Assembly: GCF_000698785.1 (NCBI RefSeq)
Contig: NZ_CP007536.1
Location: 1,740,001-1,772,000 of the forward strand
Length of the DNA stretch: 32,000 bases
Origin: Nitrososphaera viennensis EN76
GTDB lineage: Archaea > Thermoproteota > Nitrososphaeria > Nitrososphaerales > Nitrososphaeraceae
Direction of reading: 5' to 3'
Made by a program: the position numbers and the translations under genes. Under the pieces are notes generated by a model. The model was not told the DNA's origin, ran no database searches, and was given only the letters and a program-made list of their open reading frames with translations. Numbering within the stretch: the stretch's first letter is position 1; every line of letters begins with the position of its first letter. This document shows, piece after piece, positions 13,248 through 29,395 of the stretch.

Positions 13248-13262
13248 AAACTATTTAAGTTG
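13248..13262. promoter_or_regulatory. shared AT-rich TATA-like element (AAACTATTTAAGTTG) in the 64-bp divergent arsM/hxlR-type intergenic region
   Basis: About 26 nt from ATG 13229 (-; leaderless-type spacing) and about 39 nt from ATG 13294 (+). Confidence 0.35.
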
Positions 13263-13293
13263 TAAAGAGGAAACAAATACAGCTGGTGTAAAG

Positions 13294-13674
13294 ATGGAAA
13301 CCAAGAATAAACTGCCGATGGTCAACGGCTGCGGCTTTGACGGCTATGACGCCACCTCTCTCATGTCTGAAACCGCGAGGCTGCGCAGGATAATAACGAA
13401 AAGGGGCACGCTTGAGATCCTGATACCGCTGTGCTGCACCACCGAGCCGGTGCGCTACAAACAGTTCCGGGGCGCCATAAAGGGAGTAAGCAGCAAGACA
13501 CTTGCAATCCGGCTAAAAGAGCTGGAAAAAGGCGGCATACTGGAGCGCAAGGCGTACAGCGAGATCCCGCCCCGCGTCGAGTACAGGCTGACGCCAAAGG
13601 GTCAGGAGCTCGTCGAGTCTGTCATCAACCTGCTCCAGTGGATGAAAAAGTGGTCGTCATCATCAGGCGCATAG
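13294..13674 (+). CDS. HxlR-family winged-helix transcriptional regulator
   Basis: 126 aa. RYKQFRGAIKGVSSKTLAIRLKELEKGGILERKAYSEIPPRVEYRLTPKGQEL is a textbook HxlR wHTH. It has exactly three Cys (C13, C47, C48). Confidence 0.85.
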   Translation: METKNKLPMVNGCGFDGYDATSLMSETARLRRIITKRGTLEILIPLCCTTEPVRYKQFRGAIKGVSSKTLAIRLKELEKGGILERKAYSEIPPRVEYRLTPKGQELVESVINLLQWMKKWSSSSGA

Positions 13675-14178
13675 CGACGACACCGGCGGCGCAAACCCCG
13701 GCATGTCGTACGAAGAGGAGAGCATCTCCATCATGCGCTCCTGTTCTTTGCGCCTCCTCTGCTCAAGCATCAGGCCGGCGATGTTCTTTGACCGCTCAAG
13801 GTGGTCAAAGACGATGGTCGTGCAGCAGTCCATGCCTGCAAGGAGCCTGCCGATGACCGAAACGATCCTGCGCATGAGCGAGTCCCTTATCTGCGTCGTG
13901 CCGCGGAGCTGGTCCACTGTTGTTTTCGAGTCGCTCCTCACCTCGACTACGATGCGCCTCTTGCTTGAGCGCCTTAGGGCCCTGCGTATGTGCGCAAGGT
14001 TGTCCCTGAGCGCGAAATAGATGGCCAAAAGCTCCATCCGCTGCACACCAAACCGCTCGTTCTTTGGCGAGGGGCGGACGGGCCTTATCGTACCCTTCTC
14101 GGTATGATGGTTGTACCAGGCTATGTAGCCGGACGGGGAGGCGTCAGCATCTATGACAACGATTGAGTGCTGCCTCAC
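13663..14178 (-). CDS. RNase H (type 1)-like domain protein with a C-terminal extension
   Basis: 171 aa with a GTG start. DEDD-like pattern: VVIDADAS, MELLAIYFAL, VRSDSKTTV, FDHLERSKNIAGLML. A TATA-like CATATATC lies about 30 nt upstream. The 3' end overlaps the hxlR-type gene by 12 nt (convergent). Confidence 0.5.
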   Translation of the reverse strand: MRQHSIVVIDADASPSGYIAWYNHHTEKGTIRPVRPSPKNERFGVQRMELLAIYFALRDNLAHIRRALRRSSKRRIVVEVRSDSKTTVDQLRGTTQIRDSLMRRIVSVIGRLLAGMDCCTTIVFDHLERSKNIAGLMLEQRRRKEQERMMEMLSSSYDMPGFAPPVSSLCA

Positions 14179-14284: not shown

Positions 14285-14330
14285 GCAGGGCAGGGGAGAG
14301 GAAAAGAAAGAGATGAAGAAGAGGAAAAGG
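14285..14330 (-). terminator. polypyrimidine/oligo-T tract on the minus strand (purine-rich on plus), about 330 nt downstream of the CHAD stop
   Basis: Minus strand reads ccttttcctcttcttcatctctttcttttcctctcccctgccctg. Same composition as the tracts after plus-strand genes. Confidence 0.3.
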
Positions 14331-14659
14331 TTGATGGTGTGGCCCCGCAGCGTCATTATGGTGCCTCTGCTGCCGGGGTTTCCAGTCAACCTCGTACGCA
14401 GGATAGCAGGAAGACTTGAGAGGGCGCAAGAGAAAAGCCTGCCCGACATAGAATATGTCTAGGCAGTAGATCTATGTGCCGGGCATAGGCAAGCGAAAAG
14501 TAATCGTTGTTTTGCGAAGGGCCGCGCATGCCGCCGGACACCTGCTGCAGGGCGTGCCGTAGCTGCGGCGGGGGAAAAGCTGCGTGGCTGCGCGCACTGC
14601 TCGACAATGCTGGATGGCAGCAGCATAACGCACGGCCCCGGCTGCACGCACGCGCGCGT

Positions 14660-15493
14660 CTAGCTTACCATCCTTGTAAATTTTTCATAAAGCGCGTCCC
14701 TTTCGTCCTTTTCCTTCTGCAAAATAGCCTCTGCGCCCTTGGCGTTCTGAAGGTATTCTATTGTGATGTCGCAGTCGCGTATCAGTCCGAGCGTGCCCTG
14801 CAGCTCCTTGAGCATTGCCATGGCATTCCTCCTGCTTCTGCTGTTGCTGCCGCTGCTGCCGCCGGCGACCCTTGCTATGGCCCTGCCGTACTTTTTCCTG
14901 CGGCCGGCAGGAAGGATCTCAAGCACGTAGCGCAGCTTTTTCATGTCCTTGCGCAGCTCGTGCAGCTCCTCCTTTTTGCTGCTGTCGCCTACTACCACCG
15001 GCAGGCGCGCTTCAATCGCGAAAACCAGCCTCCCGGCGACCTTGTCCATCCTCCCGGCAAGCTTGTCTCCGTCAATGTTCTTTGCGCTTGCAGCCGCCGG
15101 CAGCATCATCATCTTTTTCTTTTCCACCGAGCGCGCCAGCGCAAGGGCGCGGCCAAGCGCGGCTTTTCTCCTGCCTGCAATCGCGTCCACGACAAACGGC
15201 CCACCCCCGAGGGCTGTGATCCTTGCCCTGACTATGTCAAGGTCGCGCACGCGGCTGTTGGCCCGGAAAAACGCCTTGCACGCGTCCGCCTGCTTCCTGT
15301 TCCTTTTGCGCTCTTTTTTTGGCAGGAGCGAAAACGCCGCCTCAAGGCGCCGGAGGGACGTCCGCATGCTGTGCACGTTCTCCTCGTCGCCGGGGTCGCG
15401 CAGGTACGCGGCAAGCCTCTTTTTCACGCGCACTCCGCTTGTTTCAAAGTTTTTCGCAAATTGCGCCCCGTCTGGTGTCATCATCAGCATCAT
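14660..15493 (-). CDS. CHAD-domain protein (polyphosphate-associated helical domain)
   Basis: 277 aa, helical and basic. Contains the paired CHAD blocks NVHSMRTSLRRLEAAFSLL and ELHELRKDMKKLRYVLEIL. Confidence 0.8.
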   Translation of the reverse strand: MMLMMTPDGAQFAKNFETSGVRVKKRLAAYLRDPGDEENVHSMRTSLRRLEAAFSLLPKKERKRNRKQADACKAFFRANSRVRDLDIVRARITALGGGPFVVDAIAGRRKAALGRALALARSVEKKKMMMLPAAASAKNIDGDKLAGRMDKVAGRLVFAIEARLPVVVGDSSKKEELHELRKDMKKLRYVLEILPAGRRKKYGRAIARVAGGSSGSNSRSRRNAMAMLKELQGTLGLIRDCDITIEYLQNAKGAEAILQKEKDERDALYEKFTRMVS

Positions 15494-15495
15494 CG

Positions 15496-16254
15496 CTAAA
15501 GCGCCGCCAACCTGCCTGCGCGCGCCGATTCCAAAAAGGCGTCGATGCGCTTTTGCAGGTCGGCGTTTGTCTCCGGTATAGACCTGTTGCCGTCTATTAT
15601 CACGAGGTTGTAGCGCTTTTGCATCCTGCGGAACTCTTTGGCGATCATGGTCTGGTACTTTATGAAAGACTCGAACATGTCGTCAGAAAGCCCCATGTCG
15701 GCGCCAGACTCGTAGTAGTCGAGGTACGCGTTCTTTTGAAAGACGCGGTGGACCAGCTCCTCCGGCCTGACATCGAGGTAGAACACCAGGTCTGGCACTA
15801 TTGCAAAGGAGAACAGGTTGTGCGACCAGCGCCTGCTGATGCCCCTTACCGCTTCCCTTGCAAGCAGCGTGTAGATATAGCGATCGGCAAGCACGATGTA
15901 CCCTGCGCGCAGCGCCGGGATTATCTTGTTTTCAAGCTGGTCCGCAAAATCGGCCGCGTAAAAGAGCGAGAGCGTCTTTCTGCCGGCAAAATTCCTCTTG
16001 GCCTCCAGTATCCCCTCGCTTATCAGCTCCGACCGCTTCAAGCCCGTGTTGAGCACGGCGTGCCCCGCGGCTTCAAGCTTGGCCGTTATCAGCCCAATCT
16101 GGGTGCTCCTGCCGGACGCGTCGGGCCCCTCTATCACTATGAGCCTGCCCTTGATCTCGGTATCGTCGATGTAGGGTATGCCGTGGCCGTAGAACTGGAT
16201 GGTCCTTCCTGCTGCCTGGCTTGCTGCTGCCGCCATCCTGCTGCTGCGCCTCAC
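15496..16254 (-). CDS. thymidylate-kinase-like P-loop protein, paralog B (degenerate Walker A GPDASGRST); candidate polyphosphate kinase subunit
   Basis: 252 aa. dTMPK-fold blocks LIVIEGPDASGRSTQ, LFYAADFADQ, LRAGYIVLADRYIYT. 4-nt overlap with the upstream paralog and a 2-nt gap to the CHAD gene. Confidence 0.8.
   Translation of the reverse strand: MRRSSRMAAAASQAAGRTIQFYGHGIPYIDDTEIKGRLIVIEGPDASGRSTQIGLITAKLEAAGHAVLNTGLKRSELISEGILEAKRNFAGRKTLSLFYAADFADQLENKIIPALRAGYIVLADRYIYTLLAREAVRGISRRWSHNLFSFAIVPDLVFYLDVRPEELVHRVFQKNAYLDYYESGADMGLSDDMFESFIKYQTMIAKEFRRMQKRYNLVIIDGNRSIPETNADLQKRIDAFLESARAGRLAAL
15868..15911. repeat. 44-nt segment identical to 16647..16690 (within the paralogous dTMPK-like genes)
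   Basis: cgtgtagatatagcgatcggcaagcacgatgtaccctgcgcgca occurs in both genes. On the minus strand it encodes the shared LRAGYIVLADRYIYT block. Confidence 0.9.
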
Positions 16255-16973
16255 TCTGCCGGCACCTCCTTCTCCTGCTGCTGTTGCTTGCCCCGGAAAA
16301 ACTGCCTTGGCAAAAGCTCCATCACCTTCTGGCGCATGGCCTTCTGCTGCTCCTCGATGTCTGCCGTGCCGTCGATTACGACAAAGTTCTCCGGCCCGAC
16401 CATCGAGTCGTACTGCTCCACTATCCTTCCCTGGAATATGCGGTAGCTTTCATAGGGGTCGTTGCTCAGGTTCAGGTCCATGCCCGCCTCGTAGTACTTT
16501 AGTTTCGGCCTGTTTTTCACTATCCTGTCAAACGCCACGTCCACCGGCACTCTGAAGTAGAACGAGATGTCAGGCTTGACTGCAAAGTCGTACATGTGGC
16601 GCACCCAGCGCGGGTGGCAGCCCCGCACGACGTCGCGGGCAAACGCCGTGTAGATATAGCGATCGGCAAGCACGATGTACCCTGCGCGCAAGAGCGGCAG
16701 TATGTGGCGCTCGTACCGGTCGGCAAAGTCGGTGGCGTGCAGGAGGCTGAACGTTATTGGCGTCAGCAGGGCCTTTTTCTTGCCCTTGGACGTTATCTCC
16801 TTCACCGTCTCTGACGAGTTCCACTCGGTAAAGAACACCGGCAGCCCCATGTACCTGAACCACTTTTCAAGCAGGCGTATCTGCGTGGACTTGCCGGACC
16901 CGTCCACGCCCTCTACTATTATCAGCCTGCCCGGTATTATTTCGCGATTTTTAACATACGACATCATCACCAT
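16251..16973 (-). CDS. thymidylate-kinase-like P-loop protein, paralog A (canonical Walker A GVDGSGKST); candidate polyphosphate kinase subunit
   Basis: 240 aa. LIIVEGVDGSGKSTQ, LLHATDFADR, LRAGYIVLADRYIYT. The start lies 1 nt after the ppx stop. Confidence 0.8.
   Translation of the reverse strand: MVMMSYVKNREIIPGRLIIVEGVDGSGKSTQIRLLEKWFRYMGLPVFFTEWNSSETVKEITSKGKKKALLTPITFSLLHATDFADRYERHILPLLRAGYIVLADRYIYTAFARDVVRGCHPRWVRHMYDFAVKPDISFYFRVPVDVAFDRIVKNRPKLKYYEAGMDLNLSNDPYESYRIFQGRIVEQYDSMVGPENFVVIDGTADIEEQQKAMRQKVMELLPRQFFRGKQQQQEKEVPAE
16647..16690. repeat. 44-nt segment identical to 15868..15911
   Basis: See the partner repeat. Flanking codons are diverged. Confidence 0.9.
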
Positions 16974-16974
16974 A

Positions 16975-18624
16975 TCATACGATCACCTTGACCTCCTGAT
17001 GCTTTTTTGATGCAGACCCGTTTGCTGCAGAAACAACAACCTGGCAGCTTGCAGCGACGTCAAACGCGCGCTCGAAATTGCGCAGCGCGCTTGCAAGGAG
17101 CGTTGCCGGGACGGCCGGCTGCCTGCTGCCGCTACTCTGCATGATCCTGATTGCGACTTTTTTGTTGTTGTTGCCGCTTATTGACAGGCGCGCCGTCGCC
17201 TTTGTCCTTTCAAGGATCTCCGAGAGCACTATGCACGCCGAGATCTTCTCGATCGACTTTTTGTTCTGCGGCTCCAGTATCGACCCGTACCTTGAAAACA
17301 GCCAGTCCACTGTCTTTTCCTTCTTGGTGTGGACTATGGCAAGCGCAAGGATCAGCTGCTCGCGGTGCGTGAGAAACGCGTTGTCCTCGTCCATTATCAG
17401 GTGGAAGAGGTTGCTCAGGTTGGTGACGTTGGGAAGGGTGGCCATCTCTTTGAGCGCGTGGCCCAGTATCGCCCGCTCTTTTTCGCGCAGCAGGCCGGCA
17501 GACACTAGCGGCTTGACCAGCGAAAACGCGTACTGCGGGAGCACCTCCTGCTGGCACGCAAACGTGACGTACGCCTTGGCCCGCTCGGCAGTCATCACGT
17601 TATTGCTGTAGAACGCCTTTGGGTCGCGCAAAAACACCGACAGTATCCCTTCGCGCAGGCCCCTTGCGCTGACAACCACCTTGTCAAAGTCCAGCTTTTG
17701 CATGAGAAGCGAGATTACCGCCGCGCCGGCGACAATAGTGTCGACCCTGTTGCTCCCGATTGCCTTTATCTTCTCAAGATCGCCCCTGTCCATCTTGTAC
17801 AGCTCGCTTGCTATGGCAGAGACGGAAGAATGGTCCATGCGGTAGTTGTGGATCTTGTCAAGCTCATAGCCGGCAAGCTCTTGCTCATAGCGCGCAATCG
17901 CCCGCAGCGTGCCGCCGACGCCAACGAGCGTGGTGTCGACGCTTATGCCAAGCTCCTTTCTGTCCGGCAGCGTGTCCAGTATGCGCTCCTCCATCTTGCC
18001 GTACGCCTTCTTTGAAAACGAGCCGTCATCATCGTCATCTTTGCCATCGTCATTATCTTTGTTGTTATTATTATTGCCGTACATCTTTGACAGGCGCAGC
18101 GCGCCAAGCGGGTACGACTCGACCTTCTTTATGCCGTAATTCTCGGTGTAGACCAGCTCCAGGCTCCCGCCCCCGAGGTCGAAAAAGAGCGACGTGGGTA
18201 TGCACGTCGATTCCAGCGCGCCGACATACGAGTAGAACCCCTCTTCCTCGCCGGAGAGCACCTTGAACTGAAAGCCGGTCTCCTCGCGGACCCGCTTAAG
18301 AAAAGAGTCGCGGTTTGCAGCGTCCCTCACCGCGCTTGTCGCGACCGGCAGCACGTGCCGTATGGAATCGAAATTGATGACGTCGCGGAACAGCTTCAAT
18401 GCCTCGATGGTGCGCTGCACAGGCTCGCCGGAAAGATATCCTCCTCTGCCGAGCCCCTCTCCCAGCTTGACCTTGACCCCTTCCTGCCTGTACGCCTTGA
18501 AGGTGCCGTCGCGCTTGACGTCATAGTTGACCATCTTGACCGAGTTAAAGCCCAGGTCGACGACAGAGACTTTCATTATTATTATGCTACCATCCTCTTC
18601 ATGTGCCGCGGCGTGAGAAGCCAC
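16975..18624 (-). CDS. ppx: exopolyphosphatase / Ppx-GppA family phosphatase
   Basis: 549-aa ORF. Actin-like ATPase motifs VVDLGFNSVKM, ATSAVRDAAN, LSGEEEGFYSYVG, FFDLGGGSLEL, plus a C-terminal helical domain. The likely true start is M17 (MKVSVVDLG, 18576), which removes the 43-nt overlap with sixA. Confidence 0.85.
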   Translation of the reverse strand: MASHAAAHEEDGSIIIMKVSVVDLGFNSVKMVNYDVKRDGTFKAYRQEGVKVKLGEGLGRGGYLSGEPVQRTIEALKLFRDVINFDSIRHVLPVATSAVRDAANRDSFLKRVREETGFQFKVLSGEEEGFYSYVGALESTCIPTSLFFDLGGGSLELVYTENYGIKKVESYPLGALRLSKMYGNNNNNKDNDDGKDDDDDGSFSKKAYGKMEERILDTLPDRKELGISVDTTLVGVGGTLRAIARYEQELAGYELDKIHNYRMDHSSVSAIASELYKMDRGDLEKIKAIGSNRVDTIVAGAAVISLLMQKLDFDKVVVSARGLREGILSVFLRDPKAFYSNNVMTAERAKAYVTFACQQEVLPQYAFSLVKPLVSAGLLREKERAILGHALKEMATLPNVTNLSNLFHLIMDEDNAFLTHREQLILALAIVHTKKEKTVDWLFSRYGSILEPQNKKSIEKISACIVLSEILERTKATARLSISGNNNKKVAIRIMQSSGSRQPAVPATLLASALRNFERAFDVAASCQVVVSAANGSASKKHQEVKVIV

Positions 18625-19118
18625 CGCAGCTCTCCTTTTGCCCTTGGCCGAAGCGACGTCACGCCTACCTTGGCAAGGCCGGCCTTTTTCAGCACGATGC
18701 GCCCGTCGCCCTGGCCATCAAACGCCAGGTCGCGAACCAGGCTGCTGAGGTACGGCTCGTGGCCCACCACCATCACGGAATCCTCGGGCTTGAACCGGGC
18801 AAGCTTGGAGTAGAGCGCAACCCTGCTTCCCTCCGGCTTTAATTCGTCCCACAGCTCGAATTTCCCTTTCTTGATCTTTAATTTCTTGACGACAATCTCG
18901 GCGGTCTGGCGCGCCCTTGCAAGCGGGCTTGCGGCCACAAAGTCGAGCTTTACCCCGAGATCGGCAAGTGCGCCGGCTATCTCCATTACCTCCTCCTCGC
19001 CCGTGACCGTGAGCGGGCGCTCGGAATCCTTGCTCCCGGCGGCAAGCCTCTTGCCTGCCTCGCCGTGACGCAGGATGTAAAGATCCACGGGAGCTGGTAA
19101 AGCCGGCGCGTATATCAA
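18582..19118 (-). CDS. sixA: SixA-type phosphohistidine phosphatase (histidine phosphatase superfamily)
   Basis: 178-aa ORF. LYILRHGEAG catalytic motif, SPLARARQTAEI, VVGHEP. The probable true start is GTG at 19088 (V11), because TATA-like boxes lie at 19108..19135. Confidence 0.75.
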   Translation of the reverse strand: MIYAPALPAPVDLYILRHGEAGKRLAAGSKDSERPLTVTGEEEVMEIAGALADLGVKLDFVAASPLARARQTAEIVVKKLKIKKGKFELWDELKPEGSRVALYSKLARFKPEDSVMVVGHEPYLSSLVRDLAFDGQGDGRIVLKKAGLAKVGVTSLRPRAKGELRWLLTPRHMKRMVA

Positions 19119-19135
19119 ACTTGTCTATATATTTG
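19108..19135 (-). promoter_or_regulatory. two TATA-like boxes upstream of the sixA-ppx-tmkL-tmkL-CHAD operon
   Basis: Minus strand reads CAAATATATAGAC (19123..19135) and GATATAC (about 19110..19118). The spacing fits a leaderless or short-leader transcript starting near GTG 19088. Confidence 0.35.
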
Positions 19136-19167: not shown

Positions 19168-20628
19168 TTACGAGCCATCTACCTTCAGTAGAAGCAGCTG
19201 CCCGCCTTCCTTGATGCTGTGCGCCTGAACGTCCACAAGCCAGCTTCCATTGCCAAAGAACTCCGAGACGTCCAGTATGCCGGAGGATTCCCAGTCGCCG
19301 TGCTTTGCCGCGCGATCCGCGTTCTGGTTCACGTGGGCCACGACCTTCATGTCGGCGTGGCCGGCGTCTATCGAGTCGAGGCTGACCCTGATTATCTTGG
19401 CGTTGTTGGCAATGTCGTACGGGCTTGACGGGTCCGAGCGGGTCACGCCGATGCGGTCCTCCTGTATCATCAGGCTTTTTTCGCTCGTGTCAATGTTGTC
19501 CGGGTTTGACATGCCGAGGCTGAGGCTTGCGTTGTAGCCCGGCGCAGCGGGGTCGTTGCCGTCCATTATCACCTGGAAGGATGCCTTGGTCGGGTTCCTG
19601 GGGTCGGTAAACGCGAACTTGTACATCCTGCCCCTCTCCCAGCTCTGGCCGTTTGCGCCCGGCGGGATCGCGGCCCCGTTTTCGTCCTTGTCGTTTCCGG
19701 TGTCAGCCATGTACATGACGTTTTCATGCCCGTCGCGCTTGTCCATGGCCGCGTCCTCGGGCCTTATGAAGGAGAAAGCGCCGGCCGCGTGCGCCGCGGC
19801 ATGGAGTGAAGCAGCGTCCTGGGTCTTGTAGTCCCAGCTCACAGGCACGAACCTTCCGGCCACCCGGCCTGTCGAGAAGTAAATGTCGTCCCAGCTGTTG
19901 GTGGTAGTGTTTTCAAGCGCACTGAAGACGTAAAGCTGGCCTTTGCCCTTCATGAAATCTTTGGGCGAGTCTGCCACGTACATGTAGACCTCGGACTCGG
20001 TCGCCTCGCCGTCCTCCGTCGTGATCATGACGGTCTTGCCCGCGGTCTTTTCAAAGTACGGGACGTGGATGGTGTTTTCGTGCGACAGCCTGCCAAGCCA
20101 CGGCATCTCTGTGACCTTGCCGGTCCTGGCGTCGACGCCTACAACCAGGCCGTCGCTGACTTCCTCGTTTGCAAAGTAGACAGGGTGCGTAAAGCCATGG
20201 CCGTCCACAAGCGAGGAGGAGCAGAACCTTTCGTACTGCTGCGAGCCGTCTATGACAAGCTGCTGCTCTATCACCTCGCCGTCCTTGTTGAGGACGAGCT
20301 CGGACACCTTTGCAAAGCCCCCGTGGTTTGTCCCGTTGTTGAGCTCGTGGCTGATAAATACGTCAAGCTTTTTGTCTACCTTGATGACGTACGCGCCGAT
20401 GCCGTCTGGGATGTTGGCAAAGGTATAGTCGCCTATCTTGTCGCCGCTGGTGATTATGGCCTTGACCGAGGCGCTTGCCGGGTCTGCCACCGTGACGTAC
20501 GGGGCCGCGCCCGTCAAAAAGCCACCTGAAGCCGCGCTTGCGCCTGCAATGGTCGCTGCGGGTGACAATAAAAGAACCCCAACCAGCGCCACGGCGGAAA
20601 CGATTGCGTAAAAGTTTGCAACCTTCAT
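19168..20628 (-). CDS. secreted PhoX-like (DUF839, beta-propeller) phosphatase
   Basis: 486 aa. N-terminal signal/anchor (AIVSAVALVGVLLLSPA). Blocks IPDGIGAY, ERFCSSSL, FANEEV, GRLSHENT, FIRPEDAA, MSNPDNID, MIQEDR resemble the PhoX/DUF839 family. Phosphate-island context. Confidence 0.6.
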   Translation of the reverse strand: MKVANFYAIVSAVALVGVLLLSPAATIAGASAASGGFLTGAAPYVTVADPASASVKAIITSGDKIGDYTFANIPDGIGAYVIKVDKKLDVFISHELNNGTNHGGFAKVSELVLNKDGEVIEQQLVIDGSQQYERFCSSSLVDGHGFTHPVYFANEEVSDGLVVGVDARTGKVTEMPWLGRLSHENTIHVPYFEKTAGKTVMITTEDGEATESEVYMYVADSPKDFMKGKGQLYVFSALENTTTNSWDDIYFSTGRVAGRFVPVSWDYKTQDAASLHAAAHAAGAFSFIRPEDAAMDKRDGHENVMYMADTGNDKDENGAAIPPGANGQSWERGRMYKFAFTDPRNPTKASFQVIMDGNDPAAPGYNASLSLGMSNPDNIDTSEKSLMIQEDRIGVTRSDPSSPYDIANNAKIIRVSLDSIDAGHADMKVVAHVNQNADRAAKHGDWESSGILDVSEFFGNGSWLVDVQAHSIKEGGQLLLLKVDGS

Positions 20629-21329: not shown

Positions 21330-22850
21330 ATGCACGGCTTTGAAAAAACAACGATTATTGCCGGATTTTTCGCCGCCGTCCTGGCTGCTATGCCCCTGCT
21401 GTCGGTTTACGCGCAGGGCCAGATAGTGATAGACGGCGCCGGCGCAACATTTCCGTTCCCGCTGATAGACACGTGGCGGGTGCAGTACCAGAAGGTAGAC
21501 CCAAGCATCAGCCTGAACTACCAGTCAATAGGAAGCGGCGGAGGGGTAAAGCAGTTCACCGAAAGGACGGTGGACTTTGGGGCGTCTGACGCGCCTCTCA
21601 CGGAAAGCGAGAGGAGCGCGCTGCCCGGGCCGGCAGTCCACATCCCTGAAACAATAGGCTCCGTGGTCGCTGCGTACAACGTGCCGGGCGTCGAGAAGGG
21701 CCTGAAACTAACCGGCCCCGTCCTTGCAGACATTTACCTTGGAAAGATAAAGAAGTGGAATGACCCGGCGATCGCCTCTGAAAACCAGGGCGTAAACCTC
21801 CCAGACCGCGACATCGTAGTGGTGCGCAGGGCAGACGGCTCCGGCACGACGTTCGTCTGGACAAGCTACCTAGCGACGGTGAGCCCGGAATGGAAGGACC
21901 AGGTGGGCGCAGGCAAGTCCGTCGAGTGGCCCGCAGGTGTTGGCGCTCCCGGAAACGAGGGCGTTTCAAACACGATAGGCCAGACGCCCTACTCGCTTGG
22001 GTACGTGGAGCTCTCGTACGTGCTCACGACGGGGATGGACTATGCCAGCATAAAGAACAAGGCAGGCAACTTTGTCGAGCCGACCCTTGCGTCGACAAAG
22101 GCGGCCGTGGAAGCGGCAGCTACGTCTCTCCCGGCAGGCGACGCCTCGTGGGCCAACGTTTCGCTCCTTGACGCGCCGGGCGACGACTCGTACCCGATTG
22201 CAAGCTTTTCCTACCTGCTGCTGTACAAGGAGATGAGCACGACCCCCAAGGTGAACAGCATGCAAAAGGCCCAGGCGATTGTTGACTTTATCGCGTGGGC
22301 AATCAGCCCCGAAGGGCAAAAACACGCCGAGGAGCTTTCGTACGTGCCCCTGCCTGACAACGTCGTTCAGGCGAACATGCAGACCCTCGCCTCGCTGACG
22401 TACAACGGCCAGCCTGTAATGCAGCAGCAATCCGGGCAACAATCCTCCACCGTGTCCGCCACGTTTGAAGGCAAGAGCTACCCTGTCAAGGTCAGCTCGG
22501 CAACCGCCAAGGTCACAAACATCGCGATAAACGCGGGCCAGTCAATCGACGTCGGGTTTGACAAGCCCGGCGACGTGGAGCTGACGCTGCCAAAGGCCAT
22601 GATAGACGGCATACAGGTCGTCTCGGCGGGAGGCCAGGAGGTAAGCTTCCAGCAGGTGGGCTCGACGGCTACGGACACCACGATAAAATTCACGGTGCCT
22701 GACGGCAGCACGGGTCCGGTCAGCATCAAGGGGGCGTCGGTCGTTCCCGAGTTTGGCGTGGTTGCAGCGCTTGTGCTTGCGGCATCGCTTGTGGCAGTGA
22801 TAGGCGTCGCTCGCTTCAAGGGGCAGGCCTTTGGGCTGGGCAGGCTCTAA
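21330..22850 (+). CDS. pstS: phosphate ABC transporter substrate-binding protein with C-terminal beta-rich extension and PEFG-type sorting/anchor signal
   Basis: 506 aa. GAGATFPFPLIDTWRVQYQK, NYQSIGSGGGVKQF, DFGASDAPL, RRADGSGTTFVWT. The C-terminus is VVPEFG + hydrophobic helix + RFKG (22746..22850). Confidence 0.9.
   Translation: MHGFEKTTIIAGFFAAVLAAMPLLSVYAQGQIVIDGAGATFPFPLIDTWRVQYQKVDPSISLNYQSIGSGGGVKQFTERTVDFGASDAPLTESERSALPGPAVHIPETIGSVVAAYNVPGVEKGLKLTGPVLADIYLGKIKKWNDPAIASENQGVNLPDRDIVVVRRADGSGTTFVWTSYLATVSPEWKDQVGAGKSVEWPAGVGAPGNEGVSNTIGQTPYSLGYVELSYVLTTGMDYASIKNKAGNFVEPTLASTKAAVEAAATSLPAGDASWANVSLLDAPGDDSYPIASFSYLLLYKEMSTTPKVNSMQKAQAIVDFIAWAISPEGQKHAEELSYVPLPDNVVQANMQTLASLTYNGQPVMQQQSGQQSSTVSATFEGKSYPVKVSSATAKVTNIAINAGQSIDVGFDKPGDVELTLPKAMIDGIQVVSAGGQEVSFQQVGSTATDTTIKFTVPDGSTGPVSIKGASVVPEFGVVAALVLAASLVAVIGVARFKGQAFGLGRL
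21499..21592. repeat. 94-nt tract with 1 mismatch to 23210..23303 (pstS paralogs). Further identical tracts: 21631..21680 = 23342..23391 (50 nt) and 22187..22242 = 23901..23956 (56 nt)
   Basis: Direct base-by-base comparison of the two pstS genes. The flanks carry many substitutions. Confidence 0.85.
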
Positions 22851-22854
22851 GAAG

Positions 22855-22886
22855 CCTCTCTCCTCTCCCTCTCTCTTTTTCTTACC
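22855..22886 (+). terminator. polypyrimidine/oligo-T tract after pstS copy 1
   Basis: cctctctcctctccctctctctttttcttacc begins 5 nt after TAA 22848..22850. Confidence 0.35.
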
Positions 22887-22901
22887 TGAAATTTACGCAG
22901 T

Positions 22902-22920
22902 ATTCTTTACGCTAAAGAAT
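22902..22920. promoter_or_regulatory. perfect 8-3-8 palindrome ATTCTTTA-CGC-TAAAGAAT upstream of pstS copy 2
   Basis: Read directly. It sits between the pstS1 terminator-like tract and TATA-like boxes (22921..22937, 22966..22977) of pstS2. Confidence 0.35.
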
Positions 22921-23010
22921 CTCTATAGCAATATACGAAAGCTATGTTCCTATGTATTGCATGTGAAGTATATACGCTAACCATTAATCCACACTCACTA
23001 ACTCACGCAC

Positions 23011-24555
23011 ATGCACGGCTTTGACGGCATCAGACGTACGGTGTTGGTAGGCCTTTTTGCCGGCATGCTTTTGGCGTCATTTTTGCCAGTGGCGATGTCG
23101 ACAAGTGCCTACGCGCAATCAAGCAGCAGCCAGGTAACGATCAACGGAGCAGGTGCAACATTTCCGTTCCCGCTGATAGACACCTGGAGAGTTGAATACA
23201 AAAAAGTGAACCCAAGCATCAGCCTGAACTACCAGTCAATAGGAAGCGGCGGAGGGATAAAGCAGTTCACCGAAAGGACGGTGGACTTTGGGGCGTCTGA
23301 CGCCCCGCTGACGGCGGCCCAGACAAAGGCCCTGCCTGGAGCGGCAGTCCACATCCCTGAAACAATAGGCTCCGTGGTCGCTGCGTACAACATCCCCGGC
23401 TTTAAGCAAAAGGGCCTGCTTCTCACCGGCCCCATCCTTGCCGACATTTACCTCGGCAAGATAACAAGGTGGGACGACCCGGCGATCAAGGCGCTCAACC
23501 CCAAGGTCCCGCTCCCAAGCAAGGACATACTCGTGGTCAGGAGGTCCGACGGCTCTGGCACGACGTTTGTCTGGACAGACTACCTCTCCTCTGTGAGTCC
23601 GGAATGGGCGCAGAAGGTTGGCAAGGGAACCGCGGTCCAGTGGCCAAAGGGCAGAGGAGCTCCAGGCAACGAGGGTGTTGCGTCGACGGTCAGGGGAGCC
23701 CCGTACTCGCTTGGCTACGTAGAGCTTGCGTACGCGCTGACGGCAAACATGAACTATGCTTTCATCCAGAACAAAGAGGGCAACTTTATCGAGCCGAGCC
23801 TTGACTCGGCCAAGGCGGCCGTAGAAGCGTCCGCAACGGCACTGCCGGCAGGCGACGCTGCATGGACGAACGTGTCGCTTGTCAACGCACCCGGCGACAG
23901 CTCGTACCCGATTGCAAGCTTTTCCTACCTGCTGCTGTACAAGGAGATGAGCACGAGCACCAAGATAGACAGCGAGGCCAAGGCCAAGGCGATTGTTGAC
24001 TTTATCGCGTGGGCAATCAGCCCTGCGGGACAGCAGCACGCGCAAAAGCTGTCGTACGTGCCCCTGCCTGACAACGTGGTAAGCCTGAACCAGAAAACGC
24101 TTGCCTCGCTGACGTACAAGGGCAAGGCGCTGTACACGATGCCGGGCTCAAGCTCTTCCTCGACCGCCACTTCGACAACGACAGCAACAACAGAAGAGCC
24201 GGCCAGCAAGACCTACACAGCCAAGCTATCCGTGACAGCCTCCATGAGCAAGACCACCAAGATGATGAATCTGGTGCTCAGAAACCCGTCTAACAGCGAC
24301 GCACAGGTATACCAGCTCCAGGTGACCCTTGACGGCGGCGCAAACGTCATGTCCGCCAAGGGACCGGCCGGCTGGGCAGTTGACTATGACGGAGACACTG
24401 TGATCTTTACGACCGACGACAAGCCCATAACCAAGGGCAAGCTCGGCCTGTTCAAGATCACTGCCAGCGCGACTGCCAGCAGCATCGACTGGGAAAGCGA
24501 CGACGCGGACGGCAACGTCATCAACGCCAAGACGACAACAGTCAGCGTAAGGTAA
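23011..24555 (+). CDS. pstS: phosphate ABC transporter substrate-binding protein, paralog 2, with a different C-terminal beta-sandwich-like extension and no PEFG tail
   Basis: 514 aa with the same PstS motifs as copy 1. After a Ser/Thr linker (SSSSTATSTTTATTEE), the C-terminal ~120 aa (KTYTAKLSVTASMSK...TTTVSVR) are unrelated to the copy 1 tail. Confidence 0.9.
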   Translation: MHGFDGIRRTVLVGLFAGMLLASFLPVAMSTSAYAQSSSSQVTINGAGATFPFPLIDTWRVEYKKVNPSISLNYQSIGSGGGIKQFTERTVDFGASDAPLTAAQTKALPGAAVHIPETIGSVVAAYNIPGFKQKGLLLTGPILADIYLGKITRWDDPAIKALNPKVPLPSKDILVVRRSDGSGTTFVWTDYLSSVSPEWAQKVGKGTAVQWPKGRGAPGNEGVASTVRGAPYSLGYVELAYALTANMNYAFIQNKEGNFIEPSLDSAKAAVEASATALPAGDAAWTNVSLVNAPGDSSYPIASFSYLLLYKEMSTSTKIDSEAKAKAIVDFIAWAISPAGQQHAQKLSYVPLPDNVVSLNQKTLASLTYKGKALYTMPGSSSSSTATSTTTATTEEPASKTYTAKLSVTASMSKTTKMMNLVLRNPSNSDAQVYQLQVTLDGGANVMSAKGPAGWAVDYDGDTVIFTTDDKPITKGKLGLFKITASATASSIDWESDDADGNVINAKTTTVSVR

Positions 24556-24566
24556 GGTAATGCTGA

Positions 24567-24604
24567 CCTCCCCCTCTCCTTTTCTCTTTTCTTTTTCTCT
24601 CTCT
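24567..24604 (+). terminator. polypyrimidine/oligo-T tract after pstS copy 2
   Basis: cctccccctctccttttctcttttctttttctctctct begins 12 nt after TAA 24553..24555. Confidence 0.35.
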
Positions 24605-24635
24605 ATATAGATCACCTTCAACTACAGTTTTTCCG

Positions 24636-24649
24636 TTGACAACCGTCAA
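24636..24649. promoter_or_regulatory. 5-4-5 palindrome TTGAC-AACC-GTCAA about 30 nt downstream of a TATA box (TCTATATAG, 24602..24610), upstream of pstC
   Basis: Read directly. Its position relative to the TATA box is where archaeal repressors commonly bind. Confidence 0.3.
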
Positions 24650-24682
24650 ATACGCTCCGGCCTTACCTCACGATGACATCGC

Positions 24683-25681
24683 ATGACTTTTTCAGAGTCC
24701 CGGAAGGAGCGCAAGGAGTTCCTCTCGTCGTTCTTTCTGGGGAGAAAGCGCAGGGGCGACGGCCTGTTCAAGTGGGTCGTTATCGGAGGAGCCGCGTACA
24801 CCCTGTGCATGCTCATCCTGGTGGTTTTTTCAGTGGTCGACGGCTCTCTTCCCGTCCTGTTTTACCAGGGCCTCGGGTTCTTTACCGGCACCGACTGGAA
24901 CCCCGTGGAAGGGAGGGAGTCGTACGGAGCGCTCCCCTACGTCATCGGCACGCTCGCAAGCTCGGGCATCGCTATGGCAATAGGCGTGCCCATAAGCCTC
25001 GGCATCGCGGTGTTCATCACCGAGATCGCGCCCTCAAAAGTGGGAACGCCGGTGGGCTTTGTAATAGAGATCCTGGCGGCCATCCCAAGCATCGTCTACG
25101 GCCTGTGGGCGCTCTTTGTCTTTCGGTTCTGGATACTTGACTACATCGAGTTCCCGCTCTACGACACACTTGGCCAGTCAATATCGTTCTTTGGCCCCGG
25201 CCCATTTGGCCTTGACATCTTTACCGCCGGCATCGTCCTTGCCATAATGATAATCCCGATTGTCTCTGCAATCTCGCGCGAAGTTCTAAGAGCAGTGCCA
25301 AACTCGCAGCGCGAAGCCGCGTACAGCCTTGGCGCCACGCGCTGGGAGACCGTCTGGCACTTTATCTTTCCTTACGCCAAGGCCGGAATCCTTGGCGCGG
25401 CCATCCTCGGGCTCGGCAGGGCCATGGGCGAGACCATGCTTGTCACGATGGTGATTGGAAACACCGTGGGGCTGGCGGCAATTCCTGACGGCCTGTTCAG
25501 CCCGGGCCAGACGCTTTCCAGCCTCATAGCCAACGAGTTCAACGAGGCCGCGTCGCCCCTGCACGCTTCTGCGCTCATCGGGCTTGGCGCGACGCTGTTC
25601 ATCCTTACTATGGCCATCAACATAGGCGCGCAGCTGCTCGTGTCAAGGATGGTCAAGGTAGCGCCGGGAGCCAAGGAGTGA
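24683..25681 (+). CDS. pstC: phosphate ABC transporter permease PstC
   Basis: 332 aa with 6 TM helices and the permease loop REAAYSLGATRWETVWHFIFPYAKAGI. Confidence 0.9.
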   Translation: MTFSESRKERKEFLSSFFLGRKRRGDGLFKWVVIGGAAYTLCMLILVVFSVVDGSLPVLFYQGLGFFTGTDWNPVEGRESYGALPYVIGTLASSGIAMAIGVPISLGIAVFITEIAPSKVGTPVGFVIEILAAIPSIVYGLWALFVFRFWILDYIEFPLYDTLGQSISFFGPGPFGLDIFTAGIVLAIMIIPIVSAISREVLRAVPNSQREAAYSLGATRWETVWHFIFPYAKAGILGAAILGLGRAMGETMLVTMVIGNTVGLAAIPDGLFSPGQTLSSLIANEFNEAASPLHASALIGLGATLFILTMAINIGAQLLVSRMVKVAPGAKE

Positions 25682-26595
25682 CGATCATGCAGTCAAGGCA
25701 AGAGCGCAAAAAAATGATCCAGGATGCAGTAGTCAGGACAAACGCCCGGCGCAAGCTCATGGACAAGCTGTTCACCGCAATCACTGTTGCCTGCGTCGCG
25801 GCGGCGATGATCCCGCTTGGAAGCATCCTTGTTGAAGTGGTGAAAAACGGCGTGGGCGCCATAACCGTGGAATTCCTGACGCAGCCGCAGGGCTCCATAA
25901 TAGCGGGCGACGGCGGGATAGCGCCGGCGATACAGGGCACGCTCCTCGTAGTCGCGCTTGCGTCTCTCATCGGCATCCCGGTGGGCGTTCTTGCCGGCAT
26001 CTACCTTTCCGAGTACGCGCAGGACAGCAAGTTTGCCCGCTCGGTGCGGTTCTTCAACAACGTCATGACAGGCCTGCCGTCCATCGTCATCGGCATAGTG
26101 GGGTACATCGTGCTCGTGCTCACGATCGGGTCGTTCAACATCACGGCTGGCGCTGTTGCGCTGTCAATCATCATGATACCCATAGTAGTCGGCGTGACGG
26201 AGGAGACGCTCAAGCTCGTGCCAAACTCTGTCCGCGAGGCCGGCCACTCGCTTGGCATACCAAAGTGGAAGGTGACCATCTTTATCACGCTGATGGCCGC
26301 AAAGAGCGGCGTCCTGACTGGCATCGTCCTTGCAATTGCCAGGATAGCCGGCGAGACTGCACCCCTTATCATGACCATCCTCGGCACGAGCCTGTTCTTC
26401 CAGGGCTTTGCCGGCCCCGTCGACGCTCTCCCGCTCAGGATATGGCGCCTTGCCTCGCTCCCGTACGAGCACGCGCACTCGTTTGGCTGGGGCGCCGCGC
26501 TCATACTGATACTCATAGTGCTCTCGCTTTCTATCGTGCTCAGGTTCGTGGTGTTGAGGCGCACGGGCGCTAAAGCCCCCACCCTCAAGGTCTAA
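25678..26595 (+). CDS. pstA: phosphate ABC transporter permease PstA
   Basis: 305 aa with the loop REAGHSLGIPKWKVTIFITL. 4-nt overlap with pstC. Confidence 0.9.
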   Translation: MTIMQSRQERKKMIQDAVVRTNARRKLMDKLFTAITVACVAAAMIPLGSILVEVVKNGVGAITVEFLTQPQGSIIAGDGGIAPAIQGTLLVVALASLIGIPVGVLAGIYLSEYAQDSKFARSVRFFNNVMTGLPSIVIGIVGYIVLVLTIGSFNITAGAVALSIIMIPIVVGVTEETLKLVPNSVREAGHSLGIPKWKVTIFITLMAAKSGVLTGIVLAIARIAGETAPLIMTILGTSLFFQGFAGPVDALPLRIWRLASLPYEHAHSFGWGAALILILIVLSLSIVLRFVVLRRTGAKAPTLKV

Positions 26596-26664
26596 GGGCT
26601 CTATATTGCGCTACGTGATCTATTTAGGCAATTGATAATTAGTCAAAAGCCAAAATGACCACAA

Positions 26665-27486
26665 ATGACGAGTGAGGAGTATGTCAGTAGCCCGGACTAT
26701 CAGGCTTCAACAAAAACGTCGCCAAAGCCAGGCTACAAAGTTTCAGTCCAGCGCCTCAATTCCTGGTTCTTTGACAAGCAGGCGCTAAAGGGAATCAACC
26801 TTGACGTCAAGGAAAACACTGCAACGGCGCTCATCGGCCCGTCCGGCTGCGGCAAGACGACCCTCATCCGCTCGCTCAACCGCATGAACGAGATGACCCT
26901 GGGCGCAAGGGTGGAAGGAAGCGTCTTTCTCGATGACACTGACATTTACGGCAGGGGCACCGACCCCGTCCTCATAAAGCGCAGGATCGGCATGGTGTTC
27001 CAAAAGCCAAACCCGTTTCCCACCATGAGCATCTTTGACAACGTGGCCGCGGGGCTAAAGCTGAACGGCATCAGGGACAAAAAGATGCTGGGCGAGATAG
27101 TGGAGGAAAGCCTCAAGGGAGCCGCGCTGTGGGAAGAGGTGAAAAACGAACTGGGCAAGCCCGGCATCAGCCTTTCCGGAGGCCAGCAGCAGCGCCTGTG
27201 CATAGCCCGCGCCCTTGCAATGCAGCCCGAAGTGCTTTTGATGGACGAGCCGACGTCCGCCCTTGACCCGATAGCATCCTCGAAAATAGAGGAACTGATA
27301 CACGAGCTGAAAAAAGACCTGACCGTGATAATTGTCACGCACAACATGCAGCAGGCAGCCCGCGTCTCTGACTATACCGCATTCATGTACCTGGGAGAGC
27401 TTGTTGAATACGGGCCTACAAAGCAGATATTTGAAAACCCGGACAAGGAGCTGACCGAGCGCTACATCTCAGGCAAGTTCGGGTAA
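26665..27486 (+). CDS. pstB: phosphate ABC transporter ATP-binding protein PstB
   Basis: 273 aa. Walker [10 protein letters not shown], signature [15 protein letters not shown], Walker [12 protein letters not shown], PstB-typical [10 protein letters not shown]. Confidence 0.95.
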
Positions 27487-27538
27487 TAGCAGCAGTAGGG
27501 TAGGAAAGGAAAAAGCACACCACCACGCAAATAGGTAT

Positions 27539-28204
27539 TTGATTATGACCCGCCTCCTCGACTATGGGCTGCGCAGCATGAGCAACCTGATAATGGACAT
27601 GGCCGAGCTTTCCGTGCGCTCTGTGGACACCGCCATCGAGCTGTATGAAAAGGGCGACGCCGACAAGTCGCAGATATTCGAGTGGTCCGAGCAGCTGCGG
27701 GTGCTGCAGGACGAGGTGACCGAGCTTGCCGTGGAGCTGATAGCGCGCTACCAGCCGGTGGCCACCGACCTGCGCTTCATCCGCTCCTGCATCGAGATCT
27801 CGTACGGCTTTTCCCGCTTTGGGCGCTACGCCTACGACATCGTCGACGTGATGGGCATGATGGGCTCGGTGTCGCACTGCGACAAGGGCGCCGTGATGGA
27901 GATGGCCGACACCGCCCGCAAGATGATCCACGCAAGCGTGCAGGCATTGAAGTCGAGGGACAGGGAGGCCGCGCAAAAGCTGTACCAGATGGACGACACC
28001 GTCGACGCCCTGTACAGGAAATACCTGCGCGAGGCGATAACGCCGAGCACGAAAAAAGGTTCTAACGACCTCGTCAAGGACCCGCGGTGCTACGTCTCCA
28101 GCCTCCTCATCCTGCGCTACCTTGAGAGGATAGCGGACCACGCGTGTTACATCGGCGATTCCGTGTATTACATCGTGACGGGCACGTCAAGCCCGCGCCG
28201 GTGA
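27539..28204 (+). CDS. phoU: phosphate transport system regulator PhoU
   Basis: 221 aa with two PhoU helical repeats (ELIARYQPVATDLRFI..., MDDTVDALYRKYL..., YLERIADHACYIGD). Confidence 0.85.
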   Translation: MIMTRLLDYGLRSMSNLIMDMAELSVRSVDTAIELYEKGDADKSQIFEWSEQLRVLQDEVTELAVELIARYQPVATDLRFIRSCIEISYGFSRFGRYAYDIVDVMGMMGSVSHCDKGAVMEMADTARKMIHASVQALKSRDREAAQKLYQMDDTVDALYRKYLREAITPSTKKGSNDLVKDPRCYVSSLLILRYLERIADHACYIGDSVYYIVTGTSSPRR

Positions 28205-28233
28205 TCTATCTATATAGTGTCTATAGAACACGT

Positions 28234-28251
28234 GGCCGCGCATAGCGCGCC
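28234..28251 (+). promoter_or_regulatory. GC-rich hairpin (GGCCGCGC-ATA-GCGCGCC, 7 bp with one bulge) between phoU and the AbrB-PhoU gene
   Basis: Read directly. It is flanked by CTATATAG/CTATAG/CATAG repeats (28206..28258). It could be a terminator/attenuator or a binding site. Confidence 0.25.
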
Positions 28252-28303
28252 ATAGTCTATTCTCGCAAACCGTTTATTCACAGCTTCTCAATTCTCCAGC
28301 ATA

Positions 28304-29395
28304 TTGAGGACAGCAGCTACAGCAGCAACCGCTGCTGCCGGCGGTGCGGCAGCGGCAGAACACAAAGAAGTTCGCAAGGTGCAGTTCACAGGCAGGTCCA
28401 CCTACGTCCTGTCCTTGCCAAAGAGGTGGATAGAGGAGATGCACCTTCACGCCGGCGACCAGGTGACTCTTGTCCGCGAGACTGACAACTCGCTTTCCAT
28501 AGTCCCGACCAACACCGGCCCGGCAGAGTCTCTTGCCGAGGCGACCGCGATAATCACTTCAAGCGAGGGCGAAAGCTCCCTCCGGCGCAAGGTGGTGTCG
28601 ATGTACCTCGCCGGCTACAACATCATCCACCTCAAACTAAAGGCAGGCAGGATAAACCCTGCGCTTCGCGACGCCGTCCGCGACGTGGTGAGGCGCAACC
28701 TTGTCGGCACCGAGATGATAGCCGACGCCTCTGACATCATCACGTTGCAGGTGTTGCTATCATTGCCAGAGCTTTCGGTCAATACCGCCATCAGGCGCAT
28801 GTACCTCATCGCGTCGTCTATGCACAGGGACGCCATGACCGCCCTTTCGGAGCTCAACCAAGAGCTTGCAAGGGAGGTGATAAAATCCGACGACGAGGTC
28901 GACCGGTTCAGCCTGTACGTTTTGAGGAACCTCGTGATGGCGACTCAGAACGGCCGCGTGCTCAGGGAGATGGGGCTGAAAAGCCCGTCAGACTGCCTGA
29001 GCTACCGCGTGGCCGTAAAGAGCATCGAGCGCGTTGCAGACCACGCGTGCGGCATTGCCGAGATGGCCGCAAAACTGAAGGACAAGATACCAAAGGAGAC
29101 GCTGCAAAAGATAGAAAAGATGAGCTACCTTGCGCTCACCGTGCTTGGCGATTCAGTCGAGGCGCTCCTGCGCCGGGACTACCAGCTTGCCGACAAGACG
29201 GTCGACCAGGTGGAAGGCGTGCACCCGCTTGAGGAAGAAGCGCTGGCGTTCGTGGAAAAGGCCCGCGACCCGGCAAGCCTGAAGCTGGTGCTTGAGGACA
29301 TCAGGCGCACCGCGGAATACGCAAGCGACATTGCAGAAGCCGCGCTCAACGAGACCATCGAAGAGGTAATAGAGAAAAGCTCCGCCCACAAGTAA
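28304..29395 (+). CDS. SpoVT/AbrB-type DNA-binding domain fused to PhoU-like domains (candidate archaeal phosphate-responsive transcription factor)
   Basis: 363-aa ORF with a TTG start (an alternative GTG gives MQFTGRS...). N-terminal swapped-hairpin motif VQFTGRSTYVLSLPKRWIEEMHLHAGDQVTLV. PhoU-like repeats follow, with IERVADHACGIAE and RRTAEYASDIAE. Confidence 0.8.
   Translation: MRTAATAATAAAGGAAAAEHKEVRKVQFTGRSTYVLSLPKRWIEEMHLHAGDQVTLVRETDNSLSIVPTNTGPAESLAEATAIITSSEGESSLRRKVVSMYLAGYNIIHLKLKAGRINPALRDAVRDVVRRNLVGTEMIADASDIITLQVLLSLPELSVNTAIRRMYLIASSMHRDAMTALSELNQELAREVIKSDDEVDRFSLYVLRNLVMATQNGRVLREMGLKSPSDCLSYRVAVKSIERVADHACGIAEMAAKLKDKIPKETLQKIEKMSYLALTVLGDSVEALLRRDYQLADKTVDQVEGVHPLEEEALAFVEKARDPASLKLVLEDIRRTAEYASDIAEAALNETIEEVIEKSSAHK

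Follow-up and report, generated by a model that had tools for sequence, protein, structure and literature searches.

A probable PPK3 polyphosphate operon set within a phosphate island of Nitrososphaera viennensis EN76

Gene content and organisation of the locus

The subject of this analysis is a group of five genes located in a stretch of 32,000 nucleotides (nt) of the genome of Nitrososphaera viennensis EN76 (contig NZ_CP007536.1, positions 1,740,001 to 1,772,000 of the forward strand), which is referred to below as the window and to which all coordinates apply. On the minus strand, between positions 14660 and 19088, the list of open reading frames (ORFs) contains five consecutive genes in the order sixA, ppx, cPPK3, rPPK3 and CHAD. 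The first of them, sixA (18582..19088), encodes a SixA-type histidine phosphatase of 168 amino acids (aa) and is followed by ppx (16975..18576), which encodes a Ppx/GppA-family exopolyphosphatase of 533 aa. The third gene (16251..16973, gene A) carries the database label dTMP kinase and is assigned here, by its similarity to Saci_2019 and STK_15430, to the catalytic subunit cPPK3 of the family-3 polyphosphate (polyP) kinase PPK3, and the fourth (15496..16254, gene B), a paralogue in the Thymidylate_kin family, encodes an rPPK3-like partner subunit. The last gene (14660..15493) encodes a CHAD-domain protein of 277 aa with an isoelectric point (pI) of 10.4. An earlier interpretation of the same DNA, made from its letters and without database searches (the sequence-only reading), had described five packed minus-strand genes and proposed a polyphosphate function for them; the five ORFs indeed exist and carry the named domains in Pfam and NCBIfam, and the polyphosphate function is upheld.

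The outer boundary of the cluster had been placed at a TTG codon at position 19118, but the alignments and the related loci described below indicate that sixA starts at the GTG at 19088. The resulting 168-aa protein aligns over its full length, from residue 1, with SixA of E. coli (1ujb) and Alr0221 of Nostoc (3f2i), the start position with its M/V-[DE]-L-[YF]-x-L-R-H-G pattern is common to 11 related loci, and a gene of 168 aa is also called on public contigs that encode identical proteins. For ppx, the ATG at 18576 gives the protein of 533 aa, the N-terminus of which aligns with that of Saci_2018 of Sulfolobus acidocaldarius, and the public gene call agrees with this start. Of the two forms of the sixA-ppx junction that had been envisaged, the gap of 5 nt is therefore retained and the overlap of 43 nt is unlikely. 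With these corrected starts, the successive junctions from sixA to CHAD measure 5, 1, -4 and 2 nt, the third being an overlap in which the GTG start of rPPK3 and the stop codon of cPPK3 share the tetranucleotide GTGA. The nearest named relatives of the locus are Nitrososphaera sp. genomes; the protein sequence of cPPK3 is identical on CP103305.1 (GCA_024760425.1), where the neighbouring gene calls match the window in order and sizes.

Assignment of the two kinase-like proteins

The products of genes A and B both match the Pfam family Thymidylate_kin, with 78 and 72 bits respectively. Gene A scores 236 bits against STK_15430 of S. tokodaii (PDB 2plr/5h70), the homologue of that subunit whose structure has been solved, and 228 bits, at 54% identity, against Saci_2019. 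Both the P-loop (GVDGSGKST) and the DRY motif are unaltered, and the basic residues K65-K67, R86, R105, R113, R117, R150, R155, K159 and R214 are all present, at positions that are basic in 88-100% of 83 c-type sequences. At eight c-specific basic positions, gene B carries instead S, E, N, Q, N, D, I and Q. Because the c-specific basic residues are kept in gene A and lost in gene B, we assign gene A to cPPK3 and gene B to its partner, and in a neighbour-joining tree the c-type sequences, including those of the Sulfolobales, form a single clade.

The P-loop of gene B reads GPDASGRST, with an arginine in place of the lysine, and its second motif reads LADRY, so that the arginine of the DRX motif is retained. 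Gene B also shares with the other partner subunits of its clade an invariant arginine at a position where the c subunits have a serine, and an N-terminal motif, [FY][FY]GxGxPx[LVI] (FYGHGIPY in gene B), which is conserved among these partner subunits and absent from Saci_2020.

Exopolyphosphatase and CHAD protein

The product of ppx matches the Pfam family Ppx-GppA (PF02541) with 163.7 bits, for a cutoff of 27, and solved exopolyphosphatase/GppA structures (1t6c, 2j4r and 6pc0) with 103-117 bits; it contains the DLGGGS and GEEEG motifs and is 32% identical to Saci_2018. The assignment to the Ppx/GppA family is safe, and from the gene context we infer the specificity of an exopolyphosphatase (PPX) rather than that of GppA. 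A low-complexity insert rich in Asn and Asp, NNNNNKDNDDGKDDDDDG (about 18021-18080, minus strand), separates the two halves of the Ppx-GppA domain.

The last protein matches the Pfam CHAD family (PF05235) with 73.9 bits, for a cutoff of 25.6, and gave no sequence match to any solved structure in a search of PDB sequences. In its position the gene corresponds to Saci_2021 and to the CHAD genes of seven Nitrososphaerales loci, and the protein is presumed to bind polyP.

Conservation of the cluster and its published counterpart

We collected 80 related loci from GTDB species genomes and counted the neighbours of the kinase genes within 7 kb on either side. The c and r kinase genes are adjacent in all 80 loci, and this region also contains ppx in 60 of them, sixA in 48 and CHAD in 39, a co-occurrence that is far beyond chance; the genes thus recur together in related genomes, a point that the sequence-only reading had put forward as a check on itself. 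The full order sixA-ppx-c-r-CHAD is found in seven Nitrososphaerales loci (L001-L003, L005-L007 and L026), two more being cut by contig ends. The loci of Nitrosotalea and the Nitrosopumilales are arranged as divergent units (CHAD> <ppx <sixA cPPK3> rPPK3>), and bacterial loci often have the order c r <CHAD <sixA <ppx, or ppx c r CHAD sixA.

The same set of genes has been described in S. acidocaldarius, where saci_2017-2021 form an operon, supported by transcriptome data, for SixA, PPX, cPPK3, rPPK3 and CHAD (Höfmann et al., JBC 2026, PMC12995831; bioRxiv 10.1101/2024.08.28.610084). The S. acidocaldarius, M. sedula and S. solfataricus loci all show the identical five-gene order with overlapping junctions, and the same cluster has been drawn for biomining Sulfolobales (PMC10892726). 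Saci_2019 and Saci_2020 associate, two of each, in a heterotetrameric and reversible polyP kinase, PPK3, which favours the formation of ATP from polyP and ADP; in the same study the Nitrososphaeraceae are listed among the carriers of PPK3, SixA, PPX, CHAD and Pst proteins are given as typical neighbours of PPK genes, and a replacement in situ of PPK1 by PPK3, or the reverse, is proposed (PMC12995831). The operon, its SixA member and its occurrence in the Nitrososphaeraceae have therefore all been published previously, and the present finding is in these respects a rediscovery. The sequence-only reading had spoken of a putative polyP-forming pair of kinases: the attribution to polyP kinase holds, while the word "forming" calls for a qualification: the characterised S. 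acidocaldarius enzyme is reversible and strongly favours the opposite direction.

The window resembles saci_2017-2021 in the five gene families, in their order, in the tight or overlapping junctions, in the position of the partner gene directly downstream of cPPK3 and in a cPPK3 that keeps the P-loop, the DRY motif and the basic residues. It differs by its partner subunit, which retains the DRX arginine, has an arginine for the P-loop lysine and carries the FYGxGxP motif, by the length of PPX (533 aa, compared with 411 aa in S. acidocaldarius), by a CHAD protein without detectable pairwise similarity to Saci_2021, and by its surroundings, as the operon of the window adjoins pst-phoU genes and a PhoX-like gene, unlike the S. 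acidocaldarius operon as described.

According to an alternative explanation, both kinase-like genes would be ordinary thymidylate kinases (dTMPKs) and the proximity of ppx would be incidental. Their matches to Thymidylate_kin, a score of gene A that lies barely above the TIGR00041 cutoff (84.2 vs 83.25) and the name dTMP kinase given to the homologues in databases would all be accounted for in this way; however, in S. acidocaldarius the orthologues show no dTMPK activity and together make up a polyP kinase, a third gene elsewhere in the genome encodes the real dTMPK, and the dTMP-binding residues are not conserved in PPK3 (PMC12995831). Moreover, gene B is without the P-loop lysine and the invariably adjacent pair lies recurrently beside ppx, sixA, CHAD or pst genes. 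We regard two ordinary thymidylate kinases as extremely improbable and retain the assignment to PPK3, which also means that genes labelled "dTMP kinase" beside ppx in soil ammonia-oxidising archaea are to be read as polyphosphate kinase genes.

Phosphate-related genes upstream of the operon

Upstream of the five genes, and divergent from them, the plus strand carries a pstS-pstS-pstC-pstA-pstB-phoU cluster followed by a gene for an AbrB/MazE-PhoU fusion (21330..29395), identified by Pfam matches to PBP_like_2 (twice), BPD_transp_1 (twice), ABC_tran, PhoU, and MazE_antitoxin together with PhoU. The same divergent pst neighbourhood is present in Nitrososphaera, in Nitrosotalea and in several bacterial PPK3 loci. 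The fusion protein (28304-29395, plus strand), which combines an AbrB/MazE-type DNA-binding domain with two PhoU domains, is a candidate phosphate-responsive regulator, and homologues of it are also encoded beside the PPK3 genes in Nitrosotalea-type loci.

Between the pst cluster and sixA there are two genes co-directional with the operon, encoding a 79-aa protein and a 486-aa PhoX-like protein. The PhoX-like gene (19168..20628, minus strand) lies directly upstream of sixA and, judging from its homologues, encodes a secreted and divergent member of the PhoX family (DUF839): the protein has no Pfam match of its own, 12 of its 23 homologues match PF05787, and some sources give them the name PhoX-family phosphatase. 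Neither the protein nor a profile built from the 23 sequences gave any match in PDB sequence searches. The predicted model is a beta-propeller (pLDDT 87), for which Foldseek returned generic beta-propellers alone (TM <=0.43); such a predicted fold fits PhoX but is not specific. A full-length PhoX-like gene was found at this position in none of the 80 related loci, and in L006 there may be a remainder of its 3' end. The 79-aa ORF (20719-20958, minus strand) has a zinc-ribbon-like CxxC...CxxC pattern and no family match. Since several Nitrososphaera genomes also have it between pst and sixA, it is probably a genuine small gene that belongs with the phosphate locus. With the pst-phoU cluster and the PhoX-like gene beside the operon, the locus can therefore be described as a phosphate island.

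Promoter and transcription unit

A TATA-like promoter box, TTTGATATA (19111..19119, minus strand), is located 22 nt upstream of the GTG of sixA, the centre of the box being at 27 nt. A distance of about 27 nt between the centre of the box and the start codon fits an archaeal TATA box of a leaderless mRNA, and this spacing suggests that the sixA transcript is leaderless. In eight Nitrososphaera loci the spacing between this box and the sixA start is the same as in the window, irrespective of the gene that lies upstream, and the motif occurs twice in the window for 0.03 copies expected by chance. As the bacterial promoter and terminator scanner is unsuited to an archaeon, we used a custom scan for TATA boxes and T-runs on the minus strand from 21000 to 13500. 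In this region the TATA-like boxes are confined to the 79-nt spacer upstream of sixA, in line with the single promoter-like region of the sequence-only reading, and the scan detected neither a TATA-like box nor a run of six or more T inside the five genes. Immediately behind the stop codon with which the PhoX-like gene ends there is a T6 run (19153-19148). Sequences of Shine-Dalgarno (SD) type precede cPPK3 (GGAGGT..GGTGATC) and rPPK3 (AAGGAGGTG), and none precedes sixA. The next gene downstream, which lies 480 nt beyond CHAD and encodes a 171-aa protein, is preceded at about 30 nt by a conserved AT-rich box of its own; it is probably a separate transcription unit, and we therefore let the operon end with CHAD. 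Taken together, these signals favour one transcription unit running from sixA to CHAD.

The genes could also be divided into two or more units, with sixA and ppx transcribed apart from the kinase pair and CHAD by means of weak internal promoters or of termination at T5 runs. Five T5 runs do lie inside the genes (in ppx, cPPK3, rPPK3 and CHAD), and such runs could cause partial termination in an archaeon, but their density (1.1 per kb, compared with 0.6 per kb in the other genes of the window) is not clearly higher than elsewhere. The pairs sixA-ppx and cPPK3-rPPK3 form divergent units in loci of the Nitrosotalea type, so that co-transcription of the five genes is not required for function. The junctions, on the other hand, leave no space for a promoter, the scan places no TATA-like box inside the unit, the internal genes are preceded by SD-like sequences whereas sixA is preceded by a TATA box at the leaderless distance, and the orthologous cluster of Sulfolobus is one operon by transcriptome data (PMC12995831). 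A split of the cluster is in our view improbable, and a single unit is kept as the favoured arrangement.

Proposed function of the operon

The gene identities, the orthology, the motifs, the synteny and the conserved promoter box, all of which are observed directly, make it highly probable that the locus represents, within a phosphate island, the form that the PPK3 polyphosphate operon takes in Nitrososphaera. Several points weigh against this interpretation. Besides the internal T5 runs, the divergent arrangements in Nitrosotalea and the Nitrosopumilales and the fact that co-transcription is deduced from sequence features, gene B is slightly less similar to Saci_2020 (31% identity) than to Saci_2019 (37%), and the orthology of gene B with Saci_2020 was set aside, as a rough neighbour-joining tree places Saci_2020 on a long branch outside both clades. 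The DRX arginine retained in gene B does not correspond to the lesion published for the inactive rPPK3, and PPX stays below the cutoff of TIGR03706, "exo_poly_only" (249.8 vs 307 bits).

In the scheme that we propose, a single promoter region, the TTTGATATA box upstream of sixA, would probably drive a leaderless five-gene transcript, the internal genes of which would be translationally coupled through gaps of at most 5 nt, the GTGA overlap and the SD-like sequences. By analogy with the S. acidocaldarius enzyme, gene A would provide the catalytic P-loop subunit and gene B a non-catalytic or regulatory partner, and the two, once assembled, would act as a reversible polyP:ADP phosphotransferase that builds polyP when the ATP/ADP ratio is high and, at low energy, uses polyP to regenerate ATP. 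For PPX we propose the release of inorganic phosphate from polyP and for the CHAD protein, which is very basic, the binding of polyP; the divergent pst-phoU genes next to the operon suggest that phosphate supply exerts control. The presence of such an operon beside phosphate uptake genes bears on phosphorus storage and energy buffering by these nitrifiers.

The partner subunit

A search of the whole library with gene B returned 168 cluster representatives at E <=1e-30, and those of at most 330 aa among the best 150 of these 168 matches were aligned. In this alignment, 64 representatives combine an arginine at the position of the P-loop lysine with a conserved DR and the partner-specific arginine, 21 are of the c-type (Lys, Ser, DR), 7 have a cysteine at the position of the P-loop lysine and about 8 have lost the DRX arginine. 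The partner subunits of all 80 related loci likewise have GR[ST][ST] and DRY. By contrast with these forms, the three Sulfolobales partners that we extracted read DGY, and rPPK3 of M. sedula has both changes, the P-loop arginine and DGY. By these sequence comparisons, the partner of the window, with its P-loop arginine and DRY, is the majority form and the Sulfolobus partner is the exception.

The inactivity of rPPK3 has been attributed to the replacement of the DRX arginine, and activation by the partner subunit is known for the PPK3 of S. acidocaldarius only (PMC12995831). The published account of inactivation fits the Sulfolobales only, and neither the form found in the window nor the other lineages examined. 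A change from Lys to Arg in a P-loop usually abolishes phosphotransfer and may spare nucleotide binding. The partner subunit is thus probably still non-catalytic, but through a lesion different from that of Sulfolobus rPPK3, and it might keep a ligand-binding site. Two-domain PPK2, an analogy drawn in the S. acidocaldarius study (PMC12995831), likewise associates an active P-loop module with a degenerate paralogous module; it belongs to a separate P-loop kinase family and is a fused polypeptide, whereas the modules of the window are separate proteins of dTMPK fold. Fused forms, for example of 460-696 aa, are nevertheless present among distant representatives.

The SixA protein

The first protein of the operon, from branch 1 of the histidine phosphatase superfamily, scores 98.2 bits against the TIGR00249 (sixA) model, for a cutoff of 74.5, also matches His_Phos_1 and is 34% identical to Saci_2017; in end-to-end alignment with 1ujb and 3f2i, its RHG, RP, SP..RA.QT and GHEP motifs are intact. 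The sequence-only reading had considered a SixA-type member unexpected in a polyP cluster. Since the same five-gene operon, SixA included, has been published for S. acidocaldarius (PMC12995831) and drawn for biomining Sulfolobales (PMC10892726), SixA is on the contrary expected at this position. We found no functional data in the literature on a role of SixA in polyP metabolism, and the authors of the S. acidocaldarius study present this role as future work (PMC12995831). A basic protein surface was considered as a hint of polyP binding and rejected, the trait not being conserved (pI of 9.8 here and of 5.7 in Saci_2017).

It may be argued that SixA has its classical role, that is, that it dephosphorylates a histidine-phosphotransfer (HPt) protein of a two-component or phosphotransferase system (PTS)-type pathway and is merely co-regulated with the phosphate genes. 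The protein is above the equivalog cutoff with all its motifs kept, histidine kinases are encoded by the Nitrososphaerales, and SixA of E. coli (1ujb), the phosphohistidine phosphatase of the ArcB HPt domain and of NPr, can be aligned with it over the full length and shares its motifs. Yet the score between these two proteins is only 43 bits, they are of opposite charge (pI of 4.4 in E. coli and of 9.8 here) and their gene contexts are different, and an orthologous sixA occupies the same operon position in the Sulfolobales, which are not known to have two-component and PTS systems. Furthermore, where the loci of bacteria and archaea are rearranged, SixA remains beside ppx or CHAD, even where the kinase pair is on the other strand, and it has also been reported beside PPK1 and PPK2 genes (PMC12995831). 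We consequently hold the classical role to be unlikely, although less so than a split of the operon, and prefer a substrate within polyP metabolism.

The sequence-only reading had suggested, among other targets, a phospho-enzyme intermediate of the kinase. P-loop kinases of the dTMPK fold transfer phosphate directly, without a covalent intermediate, and this target is for that reason unlikely. As SixA accompanies PPK1, PPK2 and PPK3 alike and adjoins PPX or CHAD in rearranged loci, its substrate is more likely to be common to polyP turnover. Bacterial ppk1-ppx neighbourhoods have the same accessory set (PPX, SixA, CHAD and Pst) around an unrelated kinase, and in the phosphate islands of the marine clade HIMB59 SixA adjoins ppk and ppx; PPK1 works via a phosphohistidine intermediate. 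Our guess is that SixA acts on the end of a short polyP or phosphoanhydride, or else on a polyP-associated protein phosphorylated on histidine. Two further readings can be put forward only tentatively, and are in our opinion somewhat doubtful. The partner subunit of the majority branch (the Nitrososphaerales and many bacteria), in which the DRX arginine and the lid arginines are all retained, may still have an allosteric site or a second active site for a nucleotide or for polyP, and SixA may be a dedicated phosphatase of the polyP pathway with a substrate other than an HPt protein.

Other features of the window

Downstream of the operon, 265 nt after the stop codon of CHAD, there is a conserved, hairpin-like element that is about 70 nt long (14325..14393, minus strand) and has a U-rich tract behind it. 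It is 74-86% identical in six Nitrososphaera loci and has 20 predicted pairs, three of them with a compensatory change (minimum free energy of -27.5 kcal/mol, z = -3.05). Rfam and tRNA scans of the whole window, this element included, gave no match, and a C/D-box RNA was rejected, as no convincing C or D boxes were seen by eye on either strand. The element could serve the operon at its 3' end or for stability, or else be a small RNA in its own right, and its membership of the operon is uncertain.

For the 171-aa protein (13663-14178, minus strand) there is no family match; six Nitrososphaera loci have it conserved at this place after CHAD. Shortly after the polyP operon there is also an arsenic-resistance-like set (11378-13674) with an HxlR regulator and an ArsM-like methyltransferase, both of which are found at the same position in other Nitrososphaera loci; according to the gene calls on the identical contig, this set also includes a low-molecular-weight phosphatase/ArsC-like gene and a MIP channel. 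Beyond the pst cluster, a 313-aa protein (29424-30365, minus strand) resembles the transmembrane region of pentameric ligand-gated ion channels, but weakly and below the threshold (25.1 bits, for a cutoff of 28.1), and a DNA methylase (N6_N4_Mtase; 30406-31590, minus strand) carries an N-terminal "development and cell death" (DCD) domain, which is unusual for an archaeon.

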